This document shows positions 1-49,500 of a stretch of 64,000 nt of DNA, in pieces. The stretch comes from Nageia nagi (taxonomy: Eukaryota > Plantae > Pinophyta). The stretch spans positions 205,468,001 through 205,532,000 of the forward strand of contig JBITNC010000001.1 in NCBI GenBank assembly GCA_050084985.1, in the 5' to 3' direction. A program made the position numbers and the translations under genes. Each line of letters opens with the position of its first letter. Positions within the stretch are counted from its first letter, which is position 1. The notes beneath the pieces were generated by a model, which was given only the letters and a program-made list of their open reading frames with translations, had not been told where the DNA came from and searched no databases.

Positions 1-150
1 CTCGACTTCCAAAATAGAAAGGATGAAGAATTACCAGGTGCACTTACTATAGAACTTGCCAAGGCCAAGGCATTCTTCGATGATCGATCTCACGGGATTC
101 CTGAGAACATCTTTGCTGCTGCTCACTCTACCGGTCCCACAGAGGGATGA
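1..150 (+). pseudogene. C-terminal end of an element-borne ORF (LDFQNRKDEELPGALTIELAKAKAFFDD...TEG*)
   Basis: 49 open codons from base 1 to TGA at 148-150. Same position relative to the downstream hairpin as the end of the F2 ORF, with weak similarity (ELAKAKAFF vs GMRKTMAFF). Confidence 0.4.
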
Positions 151-6231: not shown

Positions 6232-7908
6232 TGTTGTGCCCACACAACACACCGCAAGATGCAGCATTTTTGGGATCCTATTTTTTCAAAGGCAATGAGG
6301 TGCATTGCCTTGAGATTGGCTTTTGCCGACGAATAGTTCATTCTAAAGAGTAGCAAAGTATCCAGCCGCAAATTTTGTAGCCAAGGAGCTAGGATTTGAG
6401 AGCTATTGACAAAGTACGAATTTTTGGCTCTAACATAAGATCGATAGAGATAGGGCCATTTTGGTCAATTTTGAGCCCAAAAAAGGCGAGCATAACCAAA
6501 AGGTGCGTTTTGGTCACTTTTGAGCCTAAAAAGCTAAAAAATAGTTAGTATCACTAAAAAGCATGTTTTGGTCAATTTTGATCCCGGAAGTGGTCAATAT
6601 GGTAAAAATATGCATTTTTGCACAGGTTAAGCTCAAAAATAACCAAAAGTGCAAAGTTGAGCTCCAAATGACTAGAAATGTTGGAAATGATCGTTTTTGC
6701 CTAAAAATGCCTAAAATATACACTAAGAGCTCGAAAATGATCAAAAATGCAAAGTTTGAGCTCGAAAGTGCCGAAAAGTGCGTTTTGGTCGAGTTCAAGC
6801 TCGGAAAAGATGGAAATGACCGAGATGATAGGGAATTGATCATGAGTGTTCTAAAACAACGAATACAACCAAAGATGGTGCACGAAAGCTATTCACAGGA
6901 CGTTGTGAGACAGTTCAACGTGCCAAACTATCTATTTTGAAGCTTTAAGGAATCCCAACTCCAGGAGATGGTGTTAATGAGTAGTGAGGACAGATTTTAA
7001 TGATAAAGGGAGATGAAGAATACAGTTCCAGACATATTTGGGCTTGGAACTTTTAAGTTCTGATTGAAGGGGTTCCCTAGGGAATGGGGTTCCCTAGGGA
7101 ATGAAATCAAGAGACAAGTTTTGACTTCCAAGAAGTGTGGAGTTGAGTTTGAGCCTAGAAAAAGGACATTTTTCAAGTAATGTCAAAATGAAAATCTAAG
7201 AGAAAGGTGTGATGCCAAATCCAATTTTAGGCACCTTTACTCTTGAAATATTTGAAAAAAGTCAAAAAATGCCCTTCCTAGAGTTTTCCCTCGCTCAAGT
7301 TTGGAAATTAGCCTAAAACCTCCAAAACGAGCACCTACCCTTCTTGCACCCCAAAATTGCAAAAACTCAAAATTTTTGATCTCCATGAGGTGTAGGATGG
7401 GATTTCACACAAGATTGATGATTTGAGCTTTCAAAAAAAATGAGATTTAATCCCTCAAAATCATCAAAAATTGATCAGCAAATGAGAGAGCTCCAAAATT
7501 TTCCAAAGTTGGCCAAATCAAAAAAGAAGAAAGAGGTAAGGTGGCAAATCCAAAATGGAGCATCTTTGCTCTTGAAATTTTAAAAAATGACAAATTTTTG
7601 CCCTCCCTGAAGTTAGGCACTGGTTTTGCATGATTTCCCTCATTTGCCCAAGTTTCCAAAATTGCCTAAAACCCCCAAAACCTGCGCCAAGCTTGGGAGC
7701 ACTCAAAACTTGTCAAAATTCAAAAAATTTGGTCCTAGGAGCATGGGAAATCCAATTTTGCACAAGTTTCATGTTATAAGTTTTTGAAAAAATGTTGATC
7801 TACTCCCTCAAAATCACAAAAAATGGATCAGCCAATGGGAGAGCTTGAAAAATTTTCCAAATTTTTTAAAATGGTCAAAACCAAAATTGGAGAGAAAGGT
7901 AGGGTGGA

Positions 7909-13560: not shown

Positions 13561-15809
13561 ACGGCAAATCCAAAATTGAGCAACTTTGCTTTTGAAATTA
13601 TTGAAAAAGCTCAAGTTTTGCCTTCCAAAAAGTTGGGGGGAGTTTACCAAGTTTTGAACCTTGTCACAACTTTCCCAAACATGCCCAAAACCTTCAAAAC
13701 CTACGCCAAGCATCAAAGGGACCTAAAATTTGTCAAAAGTGAAATTTGTGAGCTTCATGGGGTGCAAAATTCAATTCTACACCATTTTGATCTTCCGAGT
13801 GCATAATTTGGACAAGAAAAACTCCTCCAATCATGGATTTGTCCTCCAAAATGGAGAAAATCAGAAAAAGGGAAAAAATAGAAAACTTCAAATGTTCAAA
13901 ATTTTGAGTCAAGATCCAAAATTTTAGAAATCAATTTGAATGATTGATTTGAACACCCATTTCCCTTGTGAAGAAAAGTGATTTGGATCCAAAAAGTGAA
14001 GAAAAACACAAAAAAATCTCTAGATCCAAGAGCTGAAGGCTGAAAATCTTCACTTTTCCAAAAAAAATGAAAAAAAAATAAAAATTGGAGATCATGTGTA
14101 GAATAAGGATTCAAACATTTTGGCTTTTGAAATTTTGGAAAAAGAAGTAAAATCATGCCCATTATGCCTAGGCGCTCATTTTCCAAGTTTACCAACCTTT
14201 GGCCTTTCTTCTCAACATTGGGGATGAGTAGAAAACTCCAAAAATGCAAAAACACCTTATGGAGCCTCCAAAATGCCCCATCATTAAAAAGCTCAAAATC
14301 CAATGCCTGAAAGCTCCAAATCCTATCAAAACTTCCCAATAACATTAAAATCCCATCCTTCATCCATCCATGCGGTCAAATCCACTTTTTTAAAATTTTC
14401 CAAATTTCGGACCCCCCATTTTTTTCGAAAAATAGACCAAAAAATTCCATTTTTTTGGAAAATTCTCTCATAATTCCTTGAAAATTTGCCAAATTAATCA
14501 CATCAAGGGCAAATCTAGGTTGAAACAAAGAAGAAGCTCAAAATACTGATGAACTGATCCAAAACGGTGATTTGAAGCTCCAAATTTTACCAAATTGATG
14601 CAAAATGCCTCGAAATCCATGTCAGAGGGCATCAATTTTTGTAAATATTTTATTTCAAGCATATTTTAGTGGGATGAGTATTGTTCTCCCACTAAACGAC
14701 ATTGTAATTTCAATTTAGCATTCAAATTAGCATTTTTATGTTTTTTTTAAGAATTAGGGCAACACTTGAAAATTAGACCTAATTTTGCCTATAAACAAGA
14801 GGCATGAGGTCTCATTTTCACTAGAGCTCATTTTGACCTAAATTGATGTATCCTTGCACAACACTTTTATAAGCTAATACAAAGAGGTTAAGGCGAAATC
14901 GAGCTTGTTTATCCATTTGTGGTGTTGTGAAGTGATTCTTAAGGATTATCATTATTCGTTTGACACTTTCGCATCCTTCATTTGAAAACTCACGAGTTTT
15001 AGGGAAAGTATCATTGCTTTATTTTTCTAAAGTGTTGGAAACCAGTATTTGATAGTTGCTTCATTCATAGCATGCATGTAGATGAGGTATTCTGAATATG
15101 TTTCCTGTTTCATGACATCAAACTAGAGGTTTAGATCCTAACTTTTGTTCTTCCCACGTTCTTCCATCACATGCATTTGATTGCAACGGTCCTACTTGCA
15201 GAGTATCGACAATCAGCATTCCTCACCGCTCCTCTTTGGAACAACTCGAACATAGTTTTTTGTTCGTAAAGTTGGATGAATTGCATGAAATCCCTTAGCT
15301 GATCCGAAAAGGATGAGCTTTTTAGACAATGTTTTATCGTGGTGACCAATTTGGTATCTGAGAAAGTATCCATTTCCGTTTCACAAGTGTAGTCTCTCAC
15401 TTTCCAGTATTATCTTTATGCTTTCTTTATGCTTCCGAACCCAAATACAATCATTAAGTCCACACAGATATTTCAAATAAACTCTATACATCAAATAAAA
15501 AATGTTGGTTAACAAATTGCTACCTCTCATTCCATTCATTTTCCATTGAGGTTGATTCCAAAGAGGGATACCGCACATATATTATCGATCCCTATCCAGA
15601 GACACTTGCGCAAGCGTTGGATTTCGCTTGGCAAGCATACCTACAATGTTAGAGCGTTGAGTAGGTGTTTCGACAAAAGCCTTGGAGGTATAAAGTCCTT
15701 TTCAAAAGGAGGAATTGGTAACACTTTCCCGACTATGTTGTTGGGTAGCTCCTAAGTCCTACATGCGATTTTCAAAGAGTTGCCATAGGAAATAAAAGCA
15801 TCCCAACAG

Positions 15810-18634: not shown

Positions 18635-20106
18635 TGTAACAACCCAAAAGACACTCAAGGACCTCTACCCCACATTTCAAAGATCAGATTCTCAAATTTC
18701 AAGCGGGCATGCATTCTGAAGTCGGCTAGCCTAGAAGGTCTCACAGAGCTCAAAAATTGCATCACAAGGTCCCATAATGTTTTAGTAATGAAAGCAGGCT
18801 TTCAGATTGTCCTTGCCAATCGCTAGGAGTGTTTCAAAGTCAAGTGTTGCAGAAGCAAGGAAGATGGACGAATTCTTGAGTACCAGAGGAGCATAGCGGC
18901 ATGTTGTTGCAATTGCAGCAATTTAATTTTATTTTACTATTGCAATTTATTTTAAATTTGGATTTCAAAGACTTTTTAAATTTGGTTAAGCCTTGTGACG
19001 GATGAGGATTTACTCCCACAAGTGCTGGAATAAATCTTGTAATGCCATGTTGCGAATTTTCATTGGACCACTTTTATTTTTCTTGTAATTTGCATTAGGG
19101 TTAGGGCAACACTTAGGGTTGCCACAAAAACTATTTATAGCCCATTTGGGCTCATTTGTAAGGGATTAGACATTTTGCACTTGTGAGAAACTTAACTCTT
19201 ATTTCCAAATATACAAGTTGCTCCAATTATTAATGTGGTATTATCTCATGTAATTGAATAGTGAATGCTCTCATTGATGGAATCATGAACATGTGTTGAA
19301 TGCCTTATTGAATCCAGTGGATGAATGATATTGCTATCTTATTTTGCTCAAGCTTGCTTGGTTCATTTCATAAACCTTGTGTTGAGGTGGATGAAAGAGT
19401 TTGTTGAATACCATTTGAAGTGATCTTTAAGTGAGATATGATGGGTAATGGTTCATGATTTAGGCTTGTGTTGTTTGGGATGACTCCTCTTATGTCGCTT
19501 AGCACAAGAACTTCACTCCACTATTGAAGATTCACCCACGATCTGCTTTACAACCACCCTTGACTATAGCTTTAAGATCCTTGCACTATTCCATTCATGT
19601 AGTTGGCTAGTGATAGGGATAAGGAGTGTGTGGAACTTGCATCAAGCTCGGAAGAAGTAGATTCCAATCCTTACACCAGTCGGTGAGACCATATGCACTT
19701 CTGCCCAACTCATATACTACCGTCTAATCTACCTTTTTCTTTTATCTTTCATTTTTTTTCCACAATTTTCACAATCCGATTTTACTTTTTTTTTTTTAGA
19801 AACAACCATTTTTCGGAGACAAGGACACTTTGAGTCCTTGAGTAACAAATTCTATTTGAGTTGGAAATAGCTTTAAACACCTCAACTAGTCTCCTGAGCA
19901 ACCTCTTGCACAACCCATCACGAGACCTTTGTGGTAACCAGTCCTCAGCGGGTAGAGGTCAAGCCCTACCACCTAGGTGTTGGTATCTTCCATAAGCCTT
20001 GCAAGCTCATTTGCCTATCATTTCAATGGATAAACAAGCGTTTGGAGAATTTGTACATTTTGCGTCCACTCCTTTCCCTGTTGCATACTCTGTCATATCA
20101 ATAACA
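18635..20106 (+). mobile_element. 5'-truncated giant LTR-type unit (copy Y)
   Basis: ORF-like remnant to ~18897, GGATGAG..CTCC hairpin at 19000, CTATTTATA at 19131, GGTAACCAGTCCT stem-loop at 19933, ends ...AATAACA. No matching TSD; the left boundary is approximate. Confidence 0.55.
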
Positions 20107-21312: not shown

Positions 21313-21639
21313 CTGTGACAAGATACAAAATGTTTTATGAGAGAAATAAAAGGAGGAAATTCAACACAGAAATTTACAAATAAAAAGTTTTATTCAGCAA
21401 CTGCAATATTTTCAGCAGGGTTTGATCTAATGCTGAACACTCTTTATTATATTTCAAAATTCCACTTCATTGTCAACAGAAATCTTCAAGCCTCATGTTT
21501 CAATACCCTAAGTGAAAACAAGATAACATAATTGACCACGTTCAGTAGGTTTCATTGTCATGTGATCGACCAAACATATGCCAATTGGCTAAATCCACCT
21601 TCCAAAAATACACAAGTCAACTACTACAAATAAAATTAC

Positions 21640-30729: not shown

Positions 30730-32102
30730 TGTTGTGCCAACACAACAACCCCTAAAAAATTTGCATTTTCGAGGACCCTCACAAATTAGAGCATTAAGAC
30801 ATGGAAGAAATTTTTCAAGGAAATGCATGCATCGTAGATCAGCAAGAAGAAACATGACAAGATTTGCACTTTCATGATGAAAACAAGTTGAAAAAGTGTC
30901 ATTGTGCCTATGGCGCATGTTTTGAGGGACACGCTTTTGCATGCACCCTAAATCGTGCGCCCTCCTTCATGTTGCATATTTCGAACTTAGTCTTGCATTT
31001 TCAGTTTTAAAACTGCATTTTTTCATGTCCATCATACTGTAAAAGATTGCATCCCCTCCATTGCATTCTCTTTCGAGGGTCATTCTAGTCATTTTGAAGG
31101 AAAATTTGCATTATGTCCCTGAGCGCATGTTTTAAGGGACATGCTTTTTGCATGTCCCCAAAACGATGCGACCAAGATCAATGAAGCAGTCTCTATACTT
31201 AAGACAATTTTCAAGTTGTGCGAAAAAGGAAAAGAGTGCATGCTTTGAGGTACATGCTTTTGCACATCCCCTAAACGGTGCGCCCAGGCTAAAGAGAAGT
31301 CTCGGTACTTGGTCATTTTTTTGGAGAAAATCATGAGGAAGGCCGAGCCCATGTTTTGAGGTACATGCTTTTGCATTGAAAGGTGTGCCACAAGCTAGGT
31401 GCATGTTTTTCAAGGTATGCTTGAGCACCCATGCAAAAACTTGCGCCAACTCTTAACGTACTAGCCCAAGAATAATTTCACCAAGTGTAAGATCCAAAAA
31501 AACAAGGGCCTAGGCACATGCTTCCAAGTACATGCTTTTGCACCCATCTCAAAAGGTGCGACCGAATTGCAAAGGCTTCTAAAGGTGATGGAAAGACATG
31601 CTTTTGCAAGTCCTCTAATCGATGCACCCATTATCCCAGCTCCATCATTTGACCCCATTTCAGCCCAATCATAAGGTGACATGTGGCAAGTTGAAAAGTA
31701 TATATATCAAGTCACCCCTTATCATTCAACCACTTCATTTCTGATCAAGTCCTCCAGTTGCACCATTTCTAGAACATGCTTAAGCACTCATCTCAATCGG
31801 TGCACCCAAGAGAAATAAGGATTTGAGAGTCATTTGGACTACCAGTAGCCATTTTTGAAGAGGGTGAACTGGACCTCAAGGTCCATTTTTTGTAATTCAC
31901 TTTGCATCGTTTTGACTTAGTTTACCCTAAACTGACCTATGCGCATGCTATCTTACTAGTGGTTTAAGGACTCATCCGAAATGGTGCACCCAAGTCCAAA
32001 CTCAAGAAATTGGCTAAGTATACATCATTGTTCGGTGCATTTCATTCTCCCTTCAGTTTTCCATAAGAGTTCTAGGCGCATGTTTTGAGGAACATGAAAA
32101 AG
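30730..32102 (+). mobile_element. Element F1: 5' part of a giant LTR-type unit, truncated at E
   Basis: Starts TGTTGTGCCAACAC like B and F2. 31640-31820 is colinear with 35730-35920. Array of GCGCATG...GTGCGCC units. Confidence 0.7.
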
Positions 32103-35100
32103 TGTTAGGAAGGAAATCTTTCCTCTTACTCGACGATCGCCTGAACGATTAAGACGGGAAAGCGACCCAACATTTAGGTGAGAACACGTTACTGAACTCC
32201 TCTTATAAGGACTGATACCCCAAGTTTTCTATCAAAAAGCCCGTGTCATTAATACGAGCTTTAAATGACGTAGGTCTTGTTTGGGAATCAGCTAGTGGTG
32301 TAGTAGAGGTAGTAACTGTTAACACACTTTTTTTTTGTGGGGACTGAGGTGTCTTATCTTACTATAGTTCTAAAGTTGCTATAGGTTTAAAGAAAGTGTA
32401 AAATAAAGAAAAGAAAAATGAGAATCAGGCTGGATACTGGCTAGATTTCAAAGAGGTAGTCACAATGCAGCATTGTCTAAACTTTCTTTCTCTCGGATCG
32501 GTTAAGAAATCTTGTTCAACTCAATCAAGTCTTTGAAAAGAATGACTATTGTCCAATCATTCCAAAGATGAGCAAAAAGCAAAATTGATTATCGGTACTT
32601 TGCAAGCAAGACCGATGCAATCAAATGGACTAAGCATGAGTGAAGGTGAATAGTTTTGAACAAGAAGTCTAGGAAGATGTCTTAAGAGAAAGTCGGTTCA
32701 AAATACTAAACATTTAACAAGCAAGTAATGGATTAGCAACAATTCAAGACAATTCAAACATTTTGGAAAAGTTTCCAATAAATTCTCCTAAAACTTGAAA
32801 GTTTTCAAAGAGAAGGCACGAAATTATTCGAATTACAGAAATTGTTCTTAAAGGATCAATCCACCACTCCAATAGATGAAAACATACTTTGAATCAACAT
32901 GTAGCCACTTGTATTATGATTGCAAAAGAGTTATGCATGAGTACATTAATTTGCCCCTCAATTACAAAAAATTTCAATTTTCATGAAAATTGGCCTTTTT
33001 TTTTGACATGAACATTTTAATCAAAAAAGTGACCCCCTATGGTATATTTATAGACTTTTTAGGTCAAATTTGAGTGTGTTGCCCTAATTCTTAAAAAAGC
33101 TTTAAAATGCTAATTTGAATGCTAAATTGAGATTACAATGTCATTTTAGTGGGAGAACAATACTTATCCCACTCAAATATGCTACAAATAAAATATTTAC
33201 AAAAATTGATGCCCTTTGGCATGAATTTCGAGGCATTTTGCATGAATTTGGCAAAATTTGGAGCTTCAAATCATCATTCCGGATCCTTCTGACAATCTTC
33301 TAAGCTCCTTCCTTCTTTGAATCTGGATTTTCCTATGATGTGATCATTATGAAAAACTTTCAAGGAATTCTAAGAGGATTTTTCAAAAAAGTGGATTTTT
33401 TGGTCTATTTTTTGAAAAAGATAGGGGGGTTCGAAATTTGGAAATTTTTAAAAAGTGGATTTGAACTCATGGATGGACGGATGGAAAGTAGGATTATAAG
33501 GTACTTGGCAAGTTTTGAGAGGATTTGGAGTTTTTTTAGGAGGTTTTGTGAAGGATTTGGGATTTTTGGCAAAATTTTCGATTTTCATGTCTATGGATTT
33601 TTTTGGTAGCAAAAAGTGAAAATTTCCATAGGAATGAAAAATGCCTCCTAGATTTTTGAGCACTTAAACTTGCTCAAATTGGAAAATTTCAAAGTTTAAT
33701 TGTGCTTGGAATATGCCCTTCCATGCTATGAAACCATAAATTCGATATTTGAGCAAAATTTGATATTCTTCCTCAAGGTAGGCGCTAGTTTTCACTTGTA
33801 TGGATTTCCACTGACATGAAAACCTGCAGCTGGCCTTTAGGTGCCTTAAATGTGCTCAAAATTGAAAATTTGAACGTTTAAATGTGTTTGGAATAGCCCT
33901 TATCATGCAAATATGCCAAAAAATTTGACTTTTGAGCAAATTTGCACTTATCCCTCCAACTTAGGCGCTGATTTTCACTCAATGGTATGAAAACTTGCGC
34001 CTAGCTTCTTGGGCCTTAAACTTGCTCAAATGACATTTTTGTAGACCAAATGTTTTAATGGCAATTTCCTCATGCAAGGAAGTGCTCAAACTTGAATTTG
34101 GACCAAATTTGTCAATTTTCCTCAATTAGGTGCTAGATTTCAGCCCTATCGATCTTCACTCGCCAAAACCTGCGCTAGATATTTGAGCCTTCAAAATTGC
34201 TCAAAAATGAAAATTTGAAAGCTTAAACCTTCTCAAAATGACCTCCTTTATGCAACTTATGTCTTCAAATTTGGTTTTGATCAAAATTATCATTTTCCTC
34301 AACTTTGGTGCTAGTTTTCACTCCATTGGAATTCATAGCATGAAAACAATGGCCTACCTTTTAGGAGGCTTAAATTGCTCAAATTCAAAATTTTGTAGAT
34401 CTAAACCTTCTTTAAATGGCCTTTTCCTGTCCAAGCCTTCAAACTTGATGTTGTGCTGCACAAACCCCCCAAAAATTTTCATTTGTGAGGGCCCTCAAAA
34501 TTAAAATTAGGAAATGCATAAAATTTGGTTCTAACTTCAAATAAATTTAAAACTTGCACTTTTGTGTCAAGTTCATGACATAATTGTGCATTTTTCAAGC
34601 TTGTCGCATGTTTTGGAGTGAGTCCTTGTGCACCCAACTCAAAACGGTGTCACAGCCCCTTGGCGTTTTCATCCTCATTCTTGCATTATCGTGTCTTAGC
34701 ATTGCATTTTGCTAGTCCCCATACTCAGAAATATGTCTCTCCCTCATTGCATTCCAAAATGTTGTTTTGATCAAAATGCAAGGAAATCATGTTTTTTACT
34801 TGTCGTTATGTTTTTAGGGGAGTCCTTTTGCATCTCACCCAAAATGTGGTGACCAAGTTAAAAAGCCACCCTTGATACTTAGCATTTTTTGGGGTCATTT
34901 TAAAGTATCGCAAATGCTTTTTAATGGCTGTCTTTTGACACTTTAACCTCAACACAATGACCAGGAAACCCATACTTAGCATTTTGGCGCAGCGAAATTT
35001 TGCATTACTATAGGATTCACTTATCATCAGGGCCATGAAAAGTTGCCACATGTTTTTGAGTAAGTCCTTTTGCACCCATCCAAAACCATGCGACCAAGGA

Positions 35101-36387
35101 GAAGTTTCTCATACTTAGTCATTTTTTTAGGTCACAAAGTTGTCGCATGTTTTCGGATGAGTCCTTTTTCACTTTACTAAATCCATGCGACCAAGAAGGA
35201 AAAGGACTTAGCCTTTTTTGGGCAACCATGGTTGTCGCATGCTTTTCAGCGAGTGCTTTTGGACCCTACTCAAAACATGCGACTAAATTCAAGAAGGGAA
35301 AATTGGCTAAGTGTTGGGTCCAGTTTGTTGACAAGTGGAAATTCATGCATTGGACCTTCTCCCGCTCCTATCATATGGCGACAACTGTCCTACCTGGAGG
35401 GCTATAAAAAGGAAGTCAGCCTCAGTATTTCAGTTTGCAAATTTGTCTGGATCATAGCATGGGACTAAGGGAGAAAAGCACCCTCTCTAAAACATGCAAC
35501 CTACATCAAACTTGCATTTTTCGAGATATTTCTGAATTTTTGGTCTTAGGAAGCGTGCTAGACCCCTAGGCACAAGGATTAAGATGCATGCTTTAGCACC
35601 CTCTCAAAACGGTACGACCAAGAATTGGACTTCAATGTCAACTTGGAAAATTGGCTAAGTACCTAAAGCTGGTTGCATGCTTTTCATCACATGCTTTTGG
35701 ACTCCTTAAAACCATGTGCCCTTATTTTTGCTCCATCATTTGACCCCTAGATTAACCAACCCAGAGGTGACACATGGCAGTCCAAAAATTTATAAATATC
35801 ACCTCACCCTTAGTCATTTTAATCACTTCATTTCAGGTTTGCCACCCTTTCCCCAGTCGCACCATTCCTAATACATGCTTGTGCACCCATCTCAAACAAT
35901 GCGCCAAGGAGAAATAGGGTGCTTTATGGGACGTTGTGCATCCAGTTAGCCTTTTTTCAAATAACGCATTTTAGTATAGACCCTAAATCTAGTCGCATGT
36001 TTTTCAAGTTGTGCTCAAGCAATCATCCAGATCCATGCACCCACAAGAAGAATTATGTTCGAAATTTTGACTAAGTGACCCTAGGCCGAGTCGCATGCTT
36101 TTCAAGCTGTGCTCAAGCATTCATCCAAAACCGTGCACCCAAGATCACAGGGTGAAACTGTTCAAGTGTGAGACGCCAGGAGTTGAGAGGAGAAGAAGAC
36201 AAGTGGCAAGCATGCACCCTGCCATGCATTCATCCTCCATGCATCTCATATAAAGGGGGAAGCAACTATCATTAGGGGTGTTGGACGTCCTACAGCCCAA
36301 ATCTACGCGTCTGACTCTGCCTTGCTGCATCTTTCACAACATTCAGAGCTGTCTCTAGGGTTTTCCTGCAGTATTCAGACATCTTGC

Positions 36388-39300
36388 ATGGCTTCCAGTA
36401 TTAGACCACCTCCATCAAGGGCCAGGAAGATTCAAGGCCAGCTCTTAGAAAGACATGTGACCAAAAGCTAGATGACCCAGCTTTCGAAAGAAAGCTTGAT
36501 TGAGTTTTAGGAGAGAGAGATGCCAGAGCTCTCTGAAGCCAAGTTCAAGGGGAGATATATCTTTGTCGGTGATATAGACTGGGGAAACTTAGACCCTATC
36601 CAGACGTTAGCCTCCACAGCCTCCATCAACAAGGAGGACTTATCAGAAGAGCTCATCCATACATGTGGCTTGTTCAACGCCACTATGATGCCCTTTGCAG
36701 TACCTTTTCCTGACTTGTGCTACGAAGTATCCAAGAAGTGTGAATATGACAAGAGTCCTACAGGACATCGAGGGAAATGTGATCATGGATTTCTCCCCTA
36801 CAAGAATTGAAGCAACTTTTGGCTAGAGAAGATACAAAGACGATTATACATTGGCATACTCTGAGGAATTCCACAATTCTACAGCCCAACCCGGGGACTA
36901 CATTCGGCCCTGGTTGCTGGAAGATTATTAGAATCTTCAAGGCCAGAGGTTGGTTAGCACACGCAGAAAGGAGTTCTTGCTTGTTGTGGCTAAGTTGATC
37001 ACCCTCTTATCAAGGGTCACTGGTCAGGAGAATGACACTAAGTATCAAAGGGAGTTCACGGGCTTCATTGCAGTTATCAGCTCGGGGAGAGCTATACGAT
37101 GAGCTAGGGTAATCAGTGATGCCCTACGCGATCAGTTAGCATATTTTGGTTCCTCGAAGAGATTATATATGAACTCTTATCTTGTGTACTTGTTACTGCA
37201 CGGCAAGGTCAGATCCAGGGAATTGGCTGACGAGAGACATTTGGGACAAAAGAACACCCTTGTGTGGTGAGCCTATCCAAAGTGGTGGTATCAGAACAAG
37301 TTCCAACATTTCTGTGAAAGGAATGATCATTGGGAGTATGATATCTACAAAAATATCAAAGGGGAATCCGTAGTGAAGAGGATTTCTGATGCAGCTATCC
37401 AAGCTATCAACCTACATGCAGATTTCTTTCTGCAAGATGCAGACCATACATACATCAAAGTCTATGGCTCAAAGGAGCAACCCCTGCTCCTGCCAACATA
37501 CGCCAATGACAAGCTGATCCTCATGGACTTTGCTAGGCAGCTTTTATTCTTGAAGGAGAAAGTCTAGAAAAAGAAGAATGCAACAATCAATTTGCCTAGC
37601 TCTATTGCCAAGTATGTGTGTCAGACGTGGGTGGAGGCAACCAGCATGAAGGAGTTGCAGCAATATGCCTTTTCCAAGGAGACGGTTACAAGAAAATATG
37701 ATCCTAAGGGTGTAACTGCTCGTTTCTTTGACATTGCATTCCACAAGCCCATCACATTTCCGCATAAGTCTATTGCACAAATAGATGCTCTTCTGAGCAA
37801 GAAAAAGGTTCCCCTCCAAGCAGAAAAGCCACCTCAAAGACCCCGAACTACAAAGCCCAGATCGAAGGAGGTCTCTCTCATCTCCTTCCCCTGCTCATAC
37901 TGCATCTACACCAAGCAAGACATCCTTGCTTCCTCTTGGAAAGAGGAAAGAGACTCCGAGGAAACATGTTCCAGGTCCTAGCAAGCGCACTGCAGTCATA
38001 GATGATCTTAAGGACACTGGCTATCATGCCCTCTCCTTGGATGTGTTGGATGATGTAGTGGGTGAGGCTTGTGCTAGTGATTCACCCACTGAAGTAGTCT
38101 CTTCCAGACTTAACTCATTTTCTTGGATGCAGGGAGAAAGTTCCCCCTTTACAACCAAGTTCTAGTTCCAGTTCTAAACGTTCCACTTCTTCTTCCGATG
38201 AAGAGACTGACGAAGAGCCTAGTCGTATAGTGGAAGATTCTAGAGAAGAATCAGAAAGCCATGACGGAAGAGAAGAAAAAGATGATGATGATGATGGTGC
38301 TACTGATGTTCTCAAGCAAGAGGATGTAGCTGTAGGTGCCTTTGCACCCGATGAGATGGAGTTGAAACTCTCCCGAATGATAATGAGATAGTGGACGTTG
38401 GAACATATGATGATGACATCCAGATCGTTGGAGAAAAATGTGCCAAAGAAGCAGGTGCCTCCAAACCCTCTCTTGCTGAGCATAGGAAGAAGTCCCCTTC
38501 CACATCACATAAGTCCTACACAAAGAGGAAGAACCATGAGAGATCTCCCCAACAGCGGAAAAAGGGTATATCTATAGACGGTAATGTAGGAGATGATGAA
38601 GATAGAGAGACTGAGGAGCAGAAGAAAAGAAGGCAGGAAGAGCACCAAGGTAAGGAGATCACCATCGTTCAGACCACTTCAGCGAAAGAGGTCAAGAAGA
38701 TTGACAAAGGATGGTTGGTTCAAATATTTCCTCCTCAGCCAACAACCAAGCATCCAGATCTTGACATGGATGCCTACCTTAGAGCCCTCAGCATGAGCAC
38801 GTTTCATGATGAAGATATAGATGAGGACCTGTGCTCGAAGGATGAGGAAGAAGAACTCTCGGACGGTGAGAAGATACGAAGGGTTGACACTTTTGTCTCC
38901 ACTTCTAGAAAAGAAATCTCCATCAGCCATTGTTATTCGAAGGAGAAACACCCTCAAAGACCAGAGGACTATGTCATTGAGACATTCAAGATGCCCATGA
39001 AGCTGGGATTGACAGCCCGAAAACACAGTCACGCAAACTGCTGCAGTCATGGAGCAGGAAGGCTACGAAGCCAAAAAGGAGATGAAGAGATTAAAAAGGG
39101 AACTCACAGCTAGCAAGAAAATCATTAAGGAGTTCCAAAAGGTCAGTACCACCACCTTAGATCTGCAGAAGCAAACCTCCTTCCACAAGGGATGGGAAGT
39201 GGTGAAGAAGCAACTAAAGAAGGAAGTGATGGAAGCCATTGAGAGACTGTCTTCTCGAATTTACAGGCTCCTTGCTGAAGGTGTAGAAATCAGGGATCTC

Positions 39301-39864
39301 AAAGTACAAATTTCAGCACACCTTGGCACCATGAATGGTCATCTTCCCAATGTCTCCCATTTGCAGCATATTTATGTTGCAGTCCCGAAAAGCTAGTCTA
39401 CTGCCATGAGTTCACCTATCATCATGATTGGTTGAACCACGCATTTGAAAAGTGCAATATGGCCTTGAAAATCAAAATCCCCTTGAGAAAGGAGGTCGAG
39501 GAACAAATGAGTGAATGTCTATCAACTCAAGTTCGAAGGGGAGGACAACAATGTGAGAAAGGAGGCAATATTGGCAAAAGCTCAAAATCTGTTGCAGGAA
39601 CATCTTGATGTCGATGATCTCTGCTTGCTGAAGGCAGGGCATCCTATCGTCCATGAGAGGCGGATGGTCATCTGGAGGCACCAGATGTAGGCTACTTCCA
39701 AGAAGATAGATGATTATTTTTGGCAGGATGGTAGTACCGTCGACATGATTTCCAAGGGCATGCGGAAGACTATGGCATTCTTCTAGGAGACCATTGAATC
39801 GTACAATCTTACCAGCGAGGAGTGGAGCTCCGCCAGTATCAGATTAGATCTAGCCTGGGTCTGA
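36388..39864 (+). pseudogene. ~1150-codon degenerate ORF: globular N-domain, acidic/basic low-complexity middle, coiled-coil C-terminus (retrotransposon accessory-ORF type)
   Basis: Plus-strand pieces 36520, 37373, 37592, 37926, 38391 and 39049 chain together through frameshifts. Motifs ARVISDALRDQL, LYMNSYLVY, TYIKVYGSKEQPLLLP. TATAAAG at 36249 upstream. Confidence 0.75.
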
Positions 39865-41793
39865 TCCACCCGTATATCCTACCTATGGTATCATTTCATT
39901 TGTTTAATGAATACTTGATGATGGTTGTTATGTCAGACTTTATTTCATTTGATTTGACTGGTGTAGGGATGAGGTTTTGCTCCTGCAAGATCAGATCTAT
40001 CAAACTCATTCATGGCTCTGACCGGTGCAAGGATGAGGTTTTGCTCCCGCCGGTTTAGATGTCAGACTCGTCAAACTTTTATTGCATATCTGATTTACTT
40101 TTGCATAGATTAAGGGTAGATTAGATGCATTTTGACGGTGGCATTTATATTTTGTCAGCTTTTAGATGCCACTTGCATAGTTTTGTGTGAACAATCTGAT
40201 TTTGTATTGGTGTGAGTGTTGCATGTGTGCACACCATATCAGATTTGATGCCTTTAAGGCAACACTTCTAGTGGCCTATTTATACCCCATTCGGGCCATT
40301 TAGAAGGGGATTTTTGACACTAGGGATTCTTGCATTGGATCTTTGCATATAGGATATTTATATTGAAGAATATATGCAATTTTGCACTTGGATTATTGCA
40401 TGATTTTTACGCATCGTTGCATATGTGAGACTCTGCACTTAATGGAAATATTGAATGTTCAAGCTCTTATATCTTTGAGATTCTGGCTATAAGTTTTTAT
40501 GTTTGTAATAATTTTGGAGCCATTGCATTGCAATATCCCAAAAATAAATATTTTTGTAAATGTCTCCTACACTTAATTATAAAAGTGGAAAAGGGGTTCA
40601 TGTGACTAGGAGACATAACTTAAGTTGTGTTTATTTATGCTTTATATTTTTATTTTTTGTAATAAGGTACTTTAAGTGATTTTAGGGTTAGGAGATGTCA
40701 ACTCCAAATTAGAACCTCATTCTATAAAAGGAAGTGAGCATCTCATTTGGAGCATGTTATGTGATATAAGAATTGAATATTGAAACCCTAGAGTTTCCAT
40801 GAGTTGAGATTGCAGGTCTTGCTCATTCCCATAGTGCATTGGAGGTGCATGGTTGGGGACTTGGCAATATCATTGAAGGTGTTATTGCCCTAAAATATCA
40901 AAAATACAAAAAGAGGCATCTGTGAGTGGTTCGTGGCATTTCTTTTGTGGAGGGATTCACTCAGTTTGGAAAGTTTGTATCTGCATTTTTAGTTTCGTGA
41001 GGATTCCATTTGTCCATTCCAGCTTGTCTTGGTTTGGAAATATTTAATATATGATACTGGCTGATTTCTCCTCATAGTAGTGTTATTTTATGAGCAATTT
41101 CTGAGTTATTTTATTGCTGCAATTTATTTCTGCATTTTTATATTGAGGGTTTGCTAGAAATAAAGAAATAAAAATAAAGAGAACATCACAAGTGGTATCA
41201 GAGCCACGTTCTTGCCAGCCTGTGGTTAGATCTAACATTTTTCAAAGATTTGGAGTTAGAGTTTTTGCAAATAATTCAGATCTTCAGTTTCCAGCATCTG
41301 GGTATTGAAGAAATTTGGGTGATCTGCATTTTAAAAGTAATTTTCGGAGTCAAAAAGGCATTTTTTTAAGAAATCTGCTTCCTAGACTAAGTCGTCTAGG
41401 TTTGGAAGAAAAAAATTTGCAGGATTGAAAGCTATTTTCAAGCCCAAAAAGTCTTGATCTAAAAATTTGCTTGAGAATTCAAGGTAGAATTGGATTTTTG
41501 TGTTTTCTTTGAATTAGGGTTTTCAGAAAAATTAGGGATTATAAAAATCTTTTTGTGGGTATTTCAGATTCATGTTAAAAAGTGCTTTTCTATGGTGAAA
41601 ATTTACACCCTGGTGAAAATTGCGGATTTTTAGGGGATTCGCGGATTTTTAGGGATGTGTATTAGAAAATAAAAATTGCAGATTTGGATACCCTTTTGGC
41701 CAAATTGAAGATTTGTGGCTTCAGAAAAAATTTGGTGGTAAGAATTTTTCAATATTTCAGAATTCCATTCTTTTGAAGGTTTGATAGGGTTTT

Positions 41794-42948
41794 ATGCATC
41801 GTCCCCTTATTCATCAGTATTTTACTAGAAAAAACAAACTTGCTTTGGAAATGGCAAACAGGGCAGAGGATGAGGAGCCCCAAAGGCCAGTTGATAGGAC
41901 TGAGCAAAAGTTCGATGCCCTACTTAACATGCTGCAAAGAACGGTGTCCTTACAAGAGACAAATCAGCAAGAATTGAGGGCAGGTTTGGGCAAGCCAAAT
42001 GGCACAAGGAGGGTAGGAGAAAGGGGAAAAAACAACAATGGACATGAGTCATCATCTAATTCACATACTCCCTTGCCTAGGCCACCCAAGCCTATGTTTC
42101 TTGCTCCACCATCTTCACCAGAGGAAGATGAGGTAACTGATGAATTAGATGAATGGTTTGCTGTTTATAGTAATAAATCTGAAGGTTTTAGGGCAACAGT
42201 TTCTTTTGATAAATATTTGAAGATTGTGGGTAAATCTGTTGTTGAGGCTAAAAAAGAGAAAAAGAAACCCTTATTGCATCAAAAGGTGACCATTCCCTCA
42301 TTTAATGGTCAAGATGGTCTCACAGCTAGGGCATGGCTTCAAAAATTGCAAACTTATTTTTCCTTGGAGCCTATTTCTGAAGTTGATGCAGTTCAGATTG
42401 CTACACTTCACCTTGAGGGTAGTGCTTACTCATGGTGGCATCATGGGTTAGTAACCCAAGGGCACAGTGATATTGATACATTTGATGAGTTTTGTGTTAG
42501 GGTTTTGAACAGGTTTGAAAAAAGGAATGTGGAAGAGTATTTTAAGGAGCTTGCCACTTTGAAGCAAACTTCATCCATTCATGCCTATGTGGAGGAGTTT
42601 GAGCAACTTTCAGTTCAGGTACAAAACATATCACCCAAGAGGATAATTTTTCTTTTTATGGATGGTTTATTGGAACCTTTGAAAGGGCTAGTTAAGGCTT
42701 TTGAGCCAGTTACTCTTGATGATGCCATTAAGAGGGCTTTGAACTTGGAATTTGTTTTACCTCCTAGGCAGAAATATGTTGCACATAACACATCTATTAG
42801 ACCACATTTTGCAGCTAGGAAAACAGGTATTGGACAGCAGTATGGACAATCAGGAAATCTCACGCAGCAAGGTGGAAATGAAAGGAATTTTTATGGCAAG
42901 AATCCCATGCATAGAGAGGGTTTCAGGATCTGGTTTTCAGCCATCTAA
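41794..42948 (+). CDS. gag: Gag of element G
   Basis: [46 protein letters not shown]. Confidence 0.92.
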
Positions 42949-45310
42949 TAAGCCCCCAAATGGACCACGCTTAACACAAGAAGAGAAAGATGAGCTAAGG
43001 AAACAAAACAAGTATTTCATATGCAAGTCTCCTTGGCAAAGAGGTCATAAATGTAGAGAAGGAGGTATGAAAATCATTGAATTACATTCTGATTCTGATT
43101 CTGATAATTCTGATTTTTATGAGGCAGATGAGACACCTTTGAAAGAGGAAGCACAAAGGGAGTATGAGGAAGTTCCTGAAGGTTCCCTAGCCACTTTGAG
43201 TGGGTTGAATCAGTTTCGCACTATTAAAGTACCAGGTAGATCTTTTGATGAGAAGGTTATTGTTTTAATAGATGGTGGTGCTACTTACAATTTTGTTGAT
43301 GAGAAGTTTGCCACTAGAAAGAATCTTCCTACAGCTATCATTTCTGGTTTTAGTGTTGCTATTGGCAATGGTGATCTTATCACTTGCAACAAAGTGGTAA
43401 GAAACATAAAAATTAATTTTGGCAACATGGAAGTAGATGAGCAATTCTTTGTTTTTCCCTTAGGAGGCATTCCACATATGGTTTTGGGTGTGCAATGGTT
43501 ATATTCACTTGGTGATTATGTTACTAATTATCAAAAATTAGAACTGAAATTTGTGCTTGAAGGGAAAGATGTGGTGTTGCAAGGAATAAAGGAAAATGGG
43601 CCAAAAGATTCTTACAAAATTTTGGATGTCTCTTGCAAAAGAATGGAGAGAATGATGAGGCATAGAGACATTGAATGGGCAGTTGTAATTTTCAATATAG
43701 AAGGGAAAAAATCAACCACTTATCATCCTAAAATTCAAAGTTTGCTACAAAAACATCTTAAGGTATTTTCTGACCTACCTAAAGGTTTGCCACCTAGTAG
43801 AGGTTTTCAGCATGTTATTGAATTGGAAGCAAATAGTAAACCTATTATAATAAAACCTTATAGGCATCCAAAGGTTTTTAAAGATGAGATTGAGAAAACA
43901 ATTGCTGAATTGCTTGAGAGTGGACACATTAGACCTAGTTGTAGTCCTTTTGCCTCACCTATTGTTTTAGTGAAAAAGAAGGATGGAACTATGAGAATGT
44001 GCATTGATTATAGGGCATTGAATAAAAAAACCATAAAAAATAGATATCCTATTCCTAGAGTTGATGAATTGATAGATGAGTTACATGGGGCTAAGTATTT
44101 TTCAAAAATTGATCTTAGATCAGGATATCATCAAATTCGTATGAAGGATGAGGATGTGTATAAAACAGCATTTAGATGCCATTGTGGACACTATGAGTTT
44201 ATGGTTATGCCTTTTGGATTGACTAATGCACCTGCCACTTTTCAATCAGCCATGAATCAAATTTTCAGTCAGCATTTGAGGCGCTTTGTCTTGGTATTTT
44301 TTGATGATATTTTGGTATATAGCAAAAATTGGGATGATCATTTACAACATTTAGATTCAGTTTTGAGCATTTTAGGACAGCAAGAGTTTTATGCAAAAGA
44401 ATCTAAGTGTGAATTTGCTATGACTGAAATTTTGTACTTGGGGCATATTATTTGCAAAGATGGGGTGAAAGTTGATCAAGCTAAAGTTTCAGCTGTACAA
44501 ATATGGCCTATACCATCCAACCTAACAGAATTGAGAGGTTTTGTGGGATTATGCAGTTACTACAGGAGGTTCATTAAGGGGTTTTCATCTTTGGCTGCTT
44601 CCCTTACTGAATTGACTAAGAAAGGGGCTTTTTCATGGTCTAATGAGGCTCTTCTAAGTTTTCTAAAGTTGAAGGATGTAATGACTTTTACTCCTTTACT
44701 TGCTATTCCTGATTTTTCTGTTGCTTTTACTATTGCTTGTGATGCTTCAGGTGCTGGAGTTGGAGCTGTACTTATGCAACAAGGACGCCCCATTGCCTAT
44801 GAGAGTAGAAAGCTCTCAAATGTGGAGAAAACTTTCAGCATCTATGATAAAGAGATGCTAGCTATCATACATGCCTTGACCAAATTCAAGCAATACTTGG
44901 TGTGTGGCAAGTTTGTGGTCAAAACTGATCATAACAATTTGAAATACTTCTTGGGACAAGCTGAACTAAATGAAAGACAACAAAAATTGGTAACAAAGTT
45001 GCAATTATATGATTTTGAAATTGAATTTGTAAAGGGTAAGAAGAATTCAGCAGCTGATGCACTTTCTAGGCACCCTACTTTTCATTCTCTTTCCATTATT
45101 TCTGCTGATTGGAAAGTAAAAATTATGGCTGAATATGCGAAGAATGATTTTTGCTCTAAACTAATAAATGGGCAAGTTGAAGATGATAGGTTCAGCCATA
45201 AAGAAGGACTGATTTTCTGCAAGGGAAGAGTGTTTTTAGTACCTGAATCAAAGTTGAAACAAACTTTAATGACAGCCATGCATGATGCTCCACTTGTAGG
45301 CCATCCAGGT
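42900..45310 (+). CDS. pol: Protease, reverse transcriptase and RNase H of element G (different frame from gag)
   Basis: Within the 869-aa ORF 42752-45361: [60 protein letters not shown]. Confidence 0.95.
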
Positions 45311-46548
45311 TCTACAAGACTTACAAACAAGTTAGAGAAAGATTCTATTGGAAGGGTTTGAAAAGAGATGTTTTCTTGCATGTTTAGGAATGTGTTATTT
45401 GCCAAGAAAATAAGGGAGAACATGAATTTTCCGCTGGTTTACTTCAGCCACTTCCTATTTCCAATCAGAAATGGGAAAGTATCTCCATGGATTTCATTAC
45501 TGGTTTGCCCAAGGTATACATGAAGGATTGCGTATTCGTTGTTGTTGATAGATTTACAAAATTTGCTCATTTCTATGCTATTTCAGCAACTTATACAGCC
45601 ATACAAGTTGCTGATTTGTTTTTTAAAGAAGTTTTTAGATTGCATGGTTTGCCTAGATCCATTGTGAGTGATAGGGACAAAAGATTTTTGAACATGTTTT
45701 GGCAAGAATTGTTTAAGCTATGTGGTACTAAATTGACTCCTAGTACTAGCTACCATCCCCAAACTGATGGGCAAACTAAAATTGTTAACAAATGGCTTGA
45801 AAGGTATTTGAGAAATTATGTTTCAAATCAGCAAAGTGCATGGGTTAAATGGCTACACCTTGGTGAATACTGCTACAATTCTACTTATCATATGTCCATA
45901 ACAATGTCTCCATTCAAGGCACTTTATGGTTATGATGCACCACACTTTTCAGATCTGATTTTTGGTGATTCAAATGTCCAAAAAGCTAGAGACTTTGCAG
46001 CAGAAAATCAAGCTATTCTTAATGCTTTGAAGGATAATATTCTTATGGCACAAAATCAGCAGAAGAAGTATGCAGATCAACAACGTAGTGAGCGCTCATT
46101 TGAGGTGGGTGACTTGGTTTATGTTAAGTTACAGCTCTACAAACAGTCCACATTGAAGAAGAGTGGAGCAGAGAAGCTAAAACCCAAGTTCTATGGGCCT
46201 TACAAGGTGATTAGTAAGGTTGGACAGGTTTCATATGCTTTGAAACTTCCAAGTGAGAGTAAGATACACAATGTTTTTCGTGTTTCTTGCTTGAAAAAGG
46301 CTTTAGGCCAACATGTTCAGCAATCTTCAGATTTGCCATCTCTTGATGATGAAGGAAAGCTCATTCTTGAACCTGAATTGATCCTTGAGACAAGGGAGAA
46401 AAAGCTTAGGAGTAGGACTATCAAAGAATATCTAGTGAAGTGGAAAGAACTTGCCTATGGAGGATGCTACTTGGGAAGGTGCAGAAATTTTAGATGATCC
46501 AACTTTGACTTTGCTTGAGGACAAGCAATTTGAGGAGGGTGGACTTGT
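45280..46548 (+). pseudogene. pol: Integrase and chromodomain of element G, disrupted
   Basis: H..GHPG, SMDFITGLP, IVSDRD, YHPQTDGQT, FYGPY, EYLVKW..EDATWE..LLEDKQFEEGG. Frameshifts near 45310 and 46450, TAG near 45385. Confidence 0.9.
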
Positions 46549-49500
46549 AATGTCCCAAAAATAAATATTTTGTAAATGTCTCCTACACTTAATTATAAAA
46601 GTGGAAAAGGGGTTCATGTGACTAGGAGACATAACTTAAGTTGTGTTTATTTATGTTTTTATTTTTATTTTTTGTAATAAGGTACTTTAAGTGATTTTAG
46701 GGTTAGGAGATGTCAACTCCAAATTAGAACCTCATTCTATAAAAGGAAGTGAGCATCTCATTTGGAGCATGTTATGTGATATGAGAATTGAATATTGAAA
46801 CCTTAGAGTTTCCATGAGTTAAGATTGCAGGTCTTGCTCATTCTCATAGTGCATTGGAGGTGCATGGTTGGGGACTTGGCAATATCATTGAAGGTGTTAT
46901 TGCCCTAAAATATCAAAAATACAAAAAGAGGCATCTGTGAGTGGTTCGTGGCATTTCTTTTGTGGAGGGATTCACTCAGTTTGGAAAGTTTGTATATGCA
47001 TTTTTAGTTTCGTGAGGATTCCATTTGTCCATTCCAGCTTGTCTTGGTTTGGAAATATTTAATATATAATACAGGCTGATTTCTCCTCATAGTAGTGTTA
47101 TTTTATGAGCAATTTCTGAGTTATTTTATTGCTGCAATTTATTTCTGCATTTTTATATTGAGGGTTTGCTAGAAATAAAGAAATAAAAATAAAAGGAACA
47201 TCACATGCATCCTTTAGTATTTGCATTCTATTGCATAGAGGTTCGCTGCATAAGGGGTTCTATGCATGTTCGTTATTGAATATCATCGTGAATGTATTTC
47301 TTTTGAGGAATGAGATTATAAAGTTTATAATGTGAAGGATATCATTTGTGGGATTATGTATATCTGAATGATTCTCTCTCCTTGAGTTGCATATTGAACA
47401 TTCATTTGGATGGTTTGAGTTAATTCTTTGCATGATTTGCACGCAAGTGAATGTATTCTGAGGCCTATAACTTATCTTTATATCATTCGGTAAGGTTCTT
47501 GCACTCACACCCTCACCTCACTTATAACCTTTCCATTGAGTCTTCCACCAAGACCCAATAGCTTCCTGCTCTCGTTTGGTAGTGATTTGAGCATATTTGC
47601 TATTTGTTGCCCAGCTTGATAGTGAGTGCATCGACCTTAATGAATCTGAAGATGACCTATCGAGAGACTACATCGCTGGTGATACCTTCATAAGTCATTT
47701 TTTTTCCTTGTTTTCCTTTGCACTTATCCCTATGTTTGTCCCTACATTTGTGATCTTTTTTCGCTTTCGTTCACATCTGTAGTCTTTCTTTATTGAGGAA
47801 AGGAACTCCGGCATTGTATTTCCCTTCTATATGGTTAACAACATGCATCTTTGACTACTGAGCCTTAAAGACCATATTCCATGTGAGTGCTTGGGGTAAC
47901 CAGTCCTTTCAAGCAGAAACAAGTAACATTGTTTCCTCCAAGTCTTGTGCATGTTTTGGACTAGAAAAGAAAAACATACCAACACTTGACTTTTATCAAG
48001 AATTTATTTTTTCTCCACATGTTAGGCGCCAAAAATCACTCCATTGGATTTCCATATAGCTAAAAACATGTGCCTAACATTTTGGGGTCAAAACTTGCTC
48101 ATATTTGAAAAATTGAAGACCTAAATGTGCTTGGAATGGTCATTTCCATCAATTTATGTCTTTGGTTTTGTCTTTTAGTGAAAATCCATTTTTTCCTCCA
48201 AGTTAGGTGCCAAAATGCATGTATATGGATTTCCATAGACTTGAAAACATGCGCCTAAGATTTTAGGGCACTTCCATTGGTCAACATCGAAAAATTATAG
48301 ACCTAAAGTGCCTTAGAATGGGCTTTTACATGCAACAACTCATCTCCCTTGATTTTCGAGACAAATGACATTTTCCCCTTGGTAGCTAGGTTTCTTAGCT
48401 AAGAGGGTTTTCATCCTCAAAGTTGTGATCCTGTAGGTTTCCATCCACAAGATCTTTACCTTGGAGGGTTTTCGTCCATCCAAACACCAAAATAGGGGAG
48501 TAAAAATGACAATGAAGAATGAGTAGAATGGAAGCTCAATGCACTTTTATATTTCCAAAAACCCGAATCGTTCGTTGACCTTATTATTTTATTTACTTTA
48601 TTAAAATATCAAAATCTCCTAATAACCCTTTAATGTGACATCCTTATTTCTCCTCCCTTCTTATTTTGTTTATTTTTTATATTTTTGTCCTCCTAAGTCT
48701 CCTAACATATAATTGAGCCACATTTTTATTTTATTTTATTATTATATGTATATAGGACATAATAATAAAAAAATGTGTCATTACAGAAAATGGACTGCTG
48801 GCGGTCTACTTTTTGAGGAATAAAGTGCTGAAATTCAAATTGCAAATTCTGACTACAGAAAACAAGATTGTAACTAGCATAAAATGGACAAAAAAATTGC
48901 ACACAGATATGAACATGAATATTTATGCCGGTTCCCCTCAATGTGAGAGTACATCCAATCTAAAAGAGCTCATCTTCATGGATTTAGCCAAAAGCAACAT
49001 TACAATACATTCAATGGAGAGAACACCGCCTCTCACAATCACAAATTTCCCTAATGAAATGCAACAACACTTCTTCAATACCTCCACTTAATTCTTCAAG
49101 ATTTTTATCAAGTTCAAACTTGACTCAAGAAGTTTGATTTTGCTCATCAAACCTCCCTGTAAGTGGCTCAAGAAGTTTCTGGTGTGGTTCTTCAATGGCT
49201 TCTACTCAATTCTCCCTCTAAGAGCTCAAGAAGATACTACCATCTCCCAATTCCAATTCTCTTGTTCCCCGCCCCCCTTGCAAGAAAGAATTCCCTAGGA
49301 AGTTTTGTCGAAGTAAAACAGATGCCCCTTGATTTGCACTTGGCGCTTCAGCTTCCAAAGTAACTCCAAAACTTCCCAAACCACTTCATCTTCCATTTTC
49401 CCATGCCAAGAATGGATCGCTAGTTGTCTGGTTTTGGTTAGAATGGACCACTAGTGATCCTCTTTCTGTAGAATTATGACACCAAATATGGATGTCAACC

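Follow-up and report, generated by a model that had tools for sequence, protein, structure and literature searches.

A giant solo-LTR-like unit of the conifer Nageia nagi with a decayed gene between its TG and CA ends

Retroviral genes that overlap the U3 part of a long terminal repeat (LTR), such as sag of mouse mammary tumour virus (MMTV) and nef of human immunodeficiency virus (HIV), are about 200-320 codons long. For plants, a full-text literature search, which matched exact words and missed subscription journals, found no report of a gene or open reading frame (ORF) inside an LTR. The window analysed here, 64,000 nucleotides of the conifer Nageia nagi (GenBank assembly GCA_050084985.1, contig JBITNC010000001.1, positions 205,468,001 to 205,532,000 of the forward strand), holds a unit, F2, in which a long ORF lies between TG and CA ends. 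We regard F2 as probably the solo LTR of a giant Athila/Tat-type Ty3/gypsy element of a conifer, with a broken accessory gene of predicted PMD/VANC fold in its likely U3.

In the Athila/Tat/Ogre/Retand (OTA) group of elements, LTRs of up to about 5 kb are described (PMC6317226), and an orchid Ogre-like element is given an LTR of 6,425 bp (PMC9289625). According to one account, the extra ORFs (eORFs) of Tat elements combine a PMD with a coiled coil and first appear in gymnosperms (PMC4408406); in REXdb, sense eORFs of TatII are recorded on both the 5’ (23%) and the 3’ (26%) sides (PMC6317226), and the function of Athila/Tat/Ogre accessory ORFs is described as unknown (PMC6317226, PMC4408406, PMC7264820). 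In VANDAL elements, the VANC protein is described as binding short motifs arrayed in noncoding parts of its own element (PMC5735166), and PMD-C and the DUF1985 of VANC are reported to be structurally alike (10.1101/2024.09.27.615353). Finally, rice Retrosat2/RIRE3 has, as described, LTRs of more than 3.2 kb, an ORF0 and many solo LTRs (2.6:1) (PMC3485330).

Ends and 3’ anatomy of the F2 unit

The window has 37.7% GC and consists mostly of retrotransposon pieces nested in one another. An earlier note on this DNA, made from the letters alone, had given F2 TGTTG and CAACA termini with a perfect CTTGA target-site duplication (TSD), and a size of about 6.85 kb without the nested element G; both statements hold, with ends at 34449 and 47984 and a net length of 6,854 bp. 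The note had also taken TG..CA ends with a 5-bp TSD as the signature of an LTR integrase. Both are present in F2, and in the only other complete unit of the family in the window, B (TSD GGCAT), but they are no proof alone: one scan found 28 such pairs in the window, where they are not rare by chance, and this ruled them out as sufficient proof of F2. The boundaries of F2 therefore rest on independent evidence. Firstly, the degenerate repeat array of a related unit, E, stands on both flanks of F2 (34090-34425 resembles 47984-48327). Secondly, similarity between F2 and another relative, F1, begins exactly at 34449 in F2 and at 30730 in F1, and the left end TGTTGTGC is common to F2, F1 and B. Thirdly, summed read depth drops 14- to 25-fold from bin 47951-47987 to bin 47988-48024 in four of four public runs, with loose contig ends at 47984 (14 contigs in run X2 and 12 in run X4). 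Contigs from both of two runs span all 30 bins of the F2 region, and one contig per run, again in two of two, bridges F2 without G, its short side being 20 letters. Among the read contigs, no loose end at 34449 was seen in the loose-end rows listed, and no joint from the end of F2 to its start among the 15 joints listed. These data bear on the idea that F2 is a unique patchwork of unrelated fragments whose TSD is due to chance, in favour of which 28 pairs pass the same scan of the window. The read boundary at 47984, the same array on both flanks and the colinearity of relatives (F1 and L001, a metagenome locus described below) largely refute it, the contigs that join across G also stand against it, and we give it next to no weight.

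Comparison of the 5’ 1.9 kb of F2 with its 3’ 1.5 kb gave no direct repeat (best E 0.063, 34 bp), which rules out an overlooked LTR pair inside F2, the very thing that the earlier note had allowed it might have missed. No purine run of at least 11 occurs in 39566-40528, and no border of polypurine tract (PPT) and TG lies between the ORF and the promoter-like module that follows it. An internal primer-binding site (PBS) of F2 was not found either, PBS-like matches being confined to G’s own, one within the ORF and one with two mismatches at 40515. Pfam showed no gag, pol or transposase in F2 net of G, in agreement with the note, which had seen no LTR pair, PBS, PPT, gag or pol. Without terminal direct repeats and without an internal PBS or PPT, F2 does not correspond to a complete two-LTR element, a large retrotransposon derivative (LARD) or a terminal-repeat retrotransposon in miniature (TRIM). 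Rfam gave no match in 30000-49000.

The 3’ part of F2 is shared with its relatives. The pattern AGGGCAACAC..CTATWW has exactly five matches on both strands of the 64 kb, and each of F2, B, X, E and Y holds one of them, against a mean of 0.06 and a maximum of 1 in 200 shuffles, a flattering comparison as the pattern was drawn post hoc from the same elements. The module stands 906-1037 bp from the AACA end in 5/5 members and a second shared motif 83-115 bp from that end in all five, and the module-to-end spacing is, as far as sequence goes, an independent agreement among the members. The module points outward, toward the 3’ end, with nothing left downstream to transcribe; such an outward, promoter-like sequence at about 1 kb before the end corresponds to the U3/R-U5 anatomy of an LTR and is the strongest sign in the sequence that F2 is one. 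Of the hairpins after the ORF and the structured 3’ end that the earlier note had reported, the former agree with the folding of the post-ORF region (z -3.76, 0/100 shuffles as good), and the latter was rejected (z -1.55, 7/100 shuffles as good). The motif that follows the ORF at 39967 and 40031 recurs in X (215) and Y (19000), there too behind an ORF-like end.

F1 is colinear with F2 at the 5’ end, and X and Y run from an ORF-like end via the shared motif into the promoter module; these ORF-like ends had no match among the proteins compared. The 5’ end of E was looked for and not found. F2 and B have only their ends and short modules in common. Together, the noncoding stretches of F2 (1.94 + 1.52 kb) come close in size to B, which lacks the gene, so that F2 can be read as a B-type LTR with a gene in addition. 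On these comparisons the organisation of F2 is a family trait, that of a real repeated element; B has the same termini without the ORF, as the note had it and as its TSD, net size and tblastn confirm, and X, Y, F1 and E are tied to F2 as partial relatives by shared ends, motifs and module. A database protein, P0048, joins 54 residues of an F2-type ORF to the frame of a B-like 5’ end (6271-6330 in the window), so at some place an ORF of the F2 type must border a B-like unit.

The same 3’ region can be partitioned differently, with only the last 1-1.5 kb or so as the true LTR, the ORF as an ordinary internal accessory ORF and F2 as a deleted or recombined derivative of a two-LTR Athila/Tat element. 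Summed contig depth climbs toward the 3’ end, X and Y keep only the 3’ part, and accessory ORFs are described as internal (PMC7264820). However, no second copy of the 3’ part stands at the left end of F2, no purine tract and TG border separates ORF and promoter module, the left end shared by F2, F1 and B carries the TSD, and in X and Y, too, an ORF-like end leads into the 3’ module. Summed depth, moreover, does not measure copy number, and more subfamilies have the 3’ part in common. We consider this partition improbable, and retain the reading of the whole of F2 as an LTR.

A decayed gene with a predicted PMD/VANC-like fold

The earlier note had placed a gene of about 1150 codons in F2. A reading frame of 1,133 codons is indeed there, but it is not open: stops number 9 within five tiled stretches (at least 9 overall), the longest stop-free stretch is 252 amino acids, and about seven frame changes against L001 lie near 36750, 37875, 38160, 38360, 39020, 39390 and 39515. 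An intact gene is ruled out by these features. In this copy the ORF is a pseudogene, so F2 is no working expression cassette, and the note’s suggestion that a solo LTR keeps one does not apply to it. L001 and L002, both short and inside the unit, are the two loci that a metagenome scan for F2 returned among 165 candidate stretches; scans of viral-contig and genome-contig sets found no further loci. Between the start of the ORF and 40240, L001 and F2 are colinear, at 70-76% DNA identity. Differences between the two fall 131/87/306 on codon positions 1/2/3, and dN/dS is 0.11 for this one sequence pair, over seven ungapped blocks covering 699 of the 1,133 codons with the gapped middle excluded. 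This comparison, of a kind that the note had proposed among copies, indicates that the F2 ORF was formerly under purifying selection and a real gene. At 8-606, about 200 bp upstream of its ORF start, L001 carries an LTR of a gypsy family with 1.2-kb LTRs that also occurs in the window, and its sequence between that LTR and the ORF start is unlike F2’s. When 256 homologue proteins were compared with the window by tblastn, only 1 of 240 matches fell outside the F2 ORF (a 20-amino-acid piece near the 5’ end of B).

The nine close database relatives of the ORF (50-78% identity) are all fragments, and a read-through query found no longer homologues. A profile search reached 289 representatives at E<=0.001, 150 of them among the matches listed. 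Three distant homologues, P0087, P0165 and P0250, are intact at 1,010-1,018 amino acids, distant homologues are also encoded on JGI contigs of 13-47 kb, and the profile of the close group aligns with that of one distant group at 95% probability. Homologues with a species name come from Taxus chinensis (2 of the 10 clusters looked up) and Picea glauca (one member), all of them hypothetical proteins. Pfam had no relevant match for the pieces of the F2 ORF or for about 30 homologues scanned (coiled-coil-type matches at 39013-39393 were dropped, all being below cut-offs), and a profile search of PDB sequences with the ORF family had no match.

Structure prediction served for the fold check that the note had proposed. 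The model of P0087 combines an N-domain predicted with confidence (about 41-480) with a disordered linker and long helices. That of P0028 (25.5% over 380 amino acids against F2, E 2.5e-25) has a pLDDT of 86 and a pTM of 0.84, and its sole match at Z>=5 among 48,161 PDB representatives was 9LNK, VANC21 bound to DNA (Z 7.8, root-mean-square deviation 4.6, 236 residues aligned; next-best Z 2.4). This match is of a distant homologue, with 6% identity and below the Z 8 caution line, under which a score can reflect a common structural arrangement. Foldseek returned nothing at E<=0.001 for the models of P0087 and P0028, a wide structure search with the 1,010-amino-acid model was filled by generic coiled coils, VANC21 not being among the matches listed, and the Atlas leads Transposase_32, ATHILA ORF-1 and DUF1985 scored 0.79-0.84, all below 0.9. 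The gap in Z to the next match and the independent, weak Atlas leads both point to PMD/VANC kinship, and the product of the F2 ORF is predicted to be a DNA-binding protein of PMD/VANC fold.

Candidate binding sites lie upstream of the ORF. The motif GCATGYTTTT, picked by eye from these same repeats, has, with at most one mismatch, 10 plus-strand copies in the 1.94 kb before the ATG where 0.29 are expected; it has none in the F2 ORF, 10 in F1 and at most 1 per plus-strand segment of B or E. By analogy with VANC, the F2 protein may have bound this array. The fold match to VANC21 and the noncoding array also speak for a VANDAL-like, non-TIR (terminal inverted repeat) Mutator derivative that has kept only the VANC gene and its target array. 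Mutator TSDs are about 9 bp, whereas two independent insertions here have 5 bp, and the ends are TG..CA. No transposase was seen in the unit, VANC is described as dicot-specific (PMC13547354), and PMD-type ORFs are reported in gymnosperm Tat elements (PMC4408406). We hold such an origin to be very unlikely.

Possible history of the unit and evidence on both sides

Under the reading of F2 as a solo LTR, the ancestral Athila/Tat-type element would have carried an accessory gene in sense orientation, in the interval from pol to the 3’ LTR. The start of plus-strand synthesis then probably moved upstream, the left border of the LTR passing over the accessory gene, its promoter and its array, which would have become U3. 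This U3 would measure about 5.8 kb, with its own promoter, ORF and structured 3’ untranslated region, and the last 1 kb or so of F2 would be R-U5. In each LTR, the accessory gene and the genomic RNA would have been transcribed from separate promoters; the module at 40256-40282 would have driven genomic RNA into a gag-pol region since lost via LTR-LTR recombination. The protein may bind the motif array and, in the manner of VANC in VANDAL, oppose host silencing of the family to which it belongs, a step that we find about evenly balanced once the R-U5 and U3 steps are granted, and intact solos would keep making the factor, acting in trans. The F2 copy itself decayed, and G was inserted afterwards. 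In G, Pfam recognises gag, reverse transcriptase (RT), RNase H, integrase and chromo domains, and its LTRs are 97.9% identical to each other. CpG observed/expected is 0.13 in the internal region of G (41200-46540) and 0.35-0.40 in the array and ORF of F2 (34449-39786); F2 is the older insertion yet has the higher ratio, a contrast that could reflect lighter methylation of F2 or merely family composition.

The earlier note had weighed a solo LTR whose U3 holds a gene against a single-LTR unit that moves by itself. The former fits best, given the module in 5/5 members and the PMD/VANC kinship, but several observations weigh against it. A copy of F2 paired around gag-pol was not seen, and in the window a PBS-like sequence follows 0/5 right ends and a purine tract precedes 0/3 left ends. 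Junction contigs at 47984 show near-random agreement, 0.43 (14 contigs, run X2) and 0.41 (12 contigs, run X4); a simulation, which rests on an assumed scoring of contig agreement, allows at most about 3/14 and 2/12 of them to share one continuation, and their agreement conflicts mildly with the solo:intact ratio of 2.8:1 that is described across the genome of Cupressus. Summed depth over the last 1.5 kb far exceeds that over the 5’ 2 kb (in run X1, 131-437 over 34250-36097, 438-1621 over the ORF and 1685-3637 over 47186-48100), summed contig depth not being the same as copy number. The post hoc promoter pattern, the distance of the VANC21 match, the empty Foldseek and Pfam searches and the low Atlas scores count on the same side. 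The missing PBS and PPT neighbours may mean that solos far outnumber intact elements, as long LTRs would favour, or that the unit was never paired.

A unit that stands by itself would consist of two short integrase-type ends, a promoter, an array and a gene of VANC fold; an integrase or DDE enzyme from another locus would move it in trans, and B and E would be gene-less derivatives. Both complete units are TSD-flanked singles, a PBS is missing after all five right ends and a PPT before all three left ends, the 26 junction contigs have no shared continuation, and F2 and B agree in little more than their ends and short modules. However, the terminal inverted repeat is merely 5 bp, a conserved outward promoter 1 kb from the right end would have no role, and a high solo fraction accounts for the same data. 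Reverse transcription, furthermore, requires a terminal repeat, and we know of no plant element that moves in this way. For the self-moving single-LTR unit of the note, no specific support emerged beyond the missing PBS and PPT neighbours. We judge a self-standing unit to be unlikely, and more doubtful still its most far-reaching form, in which F2-type units were never paired and represent a new high-copy mobile element of conifers, with 5-bp integrase-type ends, an anti-silencing gene of VANC fold and the array that it targets, mobilised in trans and accompanied by B and E as gene-less riders. The solo LTR with a gene in U3 remains the reading that we prefer.

Table 1 Features of the F2 unit and its relatives (positions in the window)
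Feature	Position	Strand	Basis
F2 unit, TGTTG..CAACA, probable solo LTR	34449..47984	+	termini, TSD, read boundary
Left TSD CTTGA	34444..34448	+	sequence
Right TSD CTTGA	47985..47989	+	sequence
Degenerate array of ~50-bp units, candidate binding sites	34596..36144	+	motif count
TATA-like site, candidate, ~135 bp before the ATG	36249..36254	+	read from sequence
Decayed 1,133-codon ORF, ATG 36388 to stop 39786	36388..39786	+	sequence, homologues
ORF layout: putative N-terminal PMD/VANC-like domain, acidic/low-complexity middle, C-terminal part likely coiled coil			N-terminal domain via homologues
Structured region after the ORF	39787..40300	+	folding z (see text)
Promoter-like module AGGGCAACAC..CTATTT, putative main LTR promoter at the U3/R border	40256..40282	+	1,027 bp from 3’ end net of G
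G, chromovirus-type Ty3/gypsy element nested in F2, TSD TGCAT, PBS at 41193	40529..47205	+	Pfam, LTR pair
Conserved 3’-end motif (AGTCCTT..GTAAC), 83 bp from end, then CAACA	47895..47984	+	shared by relatives
X, a distant relative’s 3’ part, with an ORF-like end, the motif after the ORF, the promoter module and the 3’ motif	1..1482	+	
B, ORF-less relative, TSD GGCAT, ~3.9 kb net, inside a gypsy pol region	6232..15808	+	same 5’ octamer, promoter module, 3’ motif
Y, a distant relative’s 3’ part, with the modules seen in X; approximate left limit	18635..20036	+	
F1, 5’ part of a relative of F2, same terminus, motif array (10 copies), cut by E	30730..32102	+	similarity to F2
E, B-like unit; F2 is inserted into its repeat array	32103..48400	-	array, promoter module

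Elsewhere in the window, 3302-18199 and 56322-61825 hold several mutually nested copies of another Ty3/gypsy family, with LTRs of about 1.2 kb that contain 29-30-bp tandem repeats; B lies in the pol of one copy and itself holds another. Decayed coding-like sequence at 2100-3300, cut by the LTR at 3302, looks by eye like a fragment of a peroxisomal ABC transporter. A TGTAAC..GTTACA pair with TSD TGACA (18635-29930), spanning Y and an exon-like region, is probably a chance pair. On the minus strand, 20500-29400 contains short open stretches that resemble host-gene exons with long introns, three of them without Pfam match. The stretches 25638-26400 and 26898-27650 form a 760-bp direct repeat, 85% alike and about 500 bp apart, in which no coding region was recognised.

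Significance and comparison with known systems

If the preferred reading is true, a full-size gene that was under selection sits in a plant LTR beside the sites that its product probably binds. The formation of solo LTRs is usually read as the host disarming a retrotransposon; here it would leave behind a cassette able to counter the silencing of the family in trans. The accessory ORFs of Athila/Tat/Ogre elements would gain a candidate role, VANC-like sequence-specific anti-silencing, and with it a candidate motif. LTRs of about 7 kb would also be beyond the usual size limits of LTR finders, so that many conifer repeats of this class may have escaped classification and their ORFs may stand in databases as ‘hypothetical proteins’ of the host, which is how the homologues from Taxus and Picea are annotated.

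Of the known systems, the OTA elements, including TatII and TatIII of gymnosperms, are described with very long LTRs, TSDs that mostly measure 5 bp, arrays of repeats and accessory ORFs that pair a PMD with a coiled coil, features that F2 has or, for the layout of its ORF product, is predicted to have. At 6.85 kb, F2 is just above the published 6,425-bp Ogre-like LTR, and the P0087 model is laid out as Tat eORFs are described to be, with a PMD and a coiled coil (PMC4408406). However, OTA accessory ORFs are described as lying between the LTRs, whereas that of F2 lies inside the TG..CA unit itself, and as no RT is linked to F2 we assign it to no lineage. The occurrence of TatII eORFs on both sides of the element is what an ORF inside both LTRs would give, which we take as a lead only. 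VANC of VANDAL and the PMD-C of MAIN/MAIL1 resemble F2 in the predicted fold of the N-domain, a coiled-coil region and a noncoding motif array; they differ in that sequence-level matches to F2 are absent, the carrier of F2 is LTR-like and not a DNA transposon, and DNA binding and demethylation are putative for F2. Retrosat2/RIRE3, with long LTRs, an extra ORF and many solos, is described as chromoviral, and its ORF0 as upstream of gag-pol and not in the LTR. The parts of F2 are each of a known kind, and their arrangement appears to be undescribed. As in MMTV sag and HIV nef, coding sequence lies within the LTR, to be duplicated with it and kept in solos; the F2 ORF, unrelated to either, is longer, at 1,133 codons, and has an apparent upstream promoter of its own.

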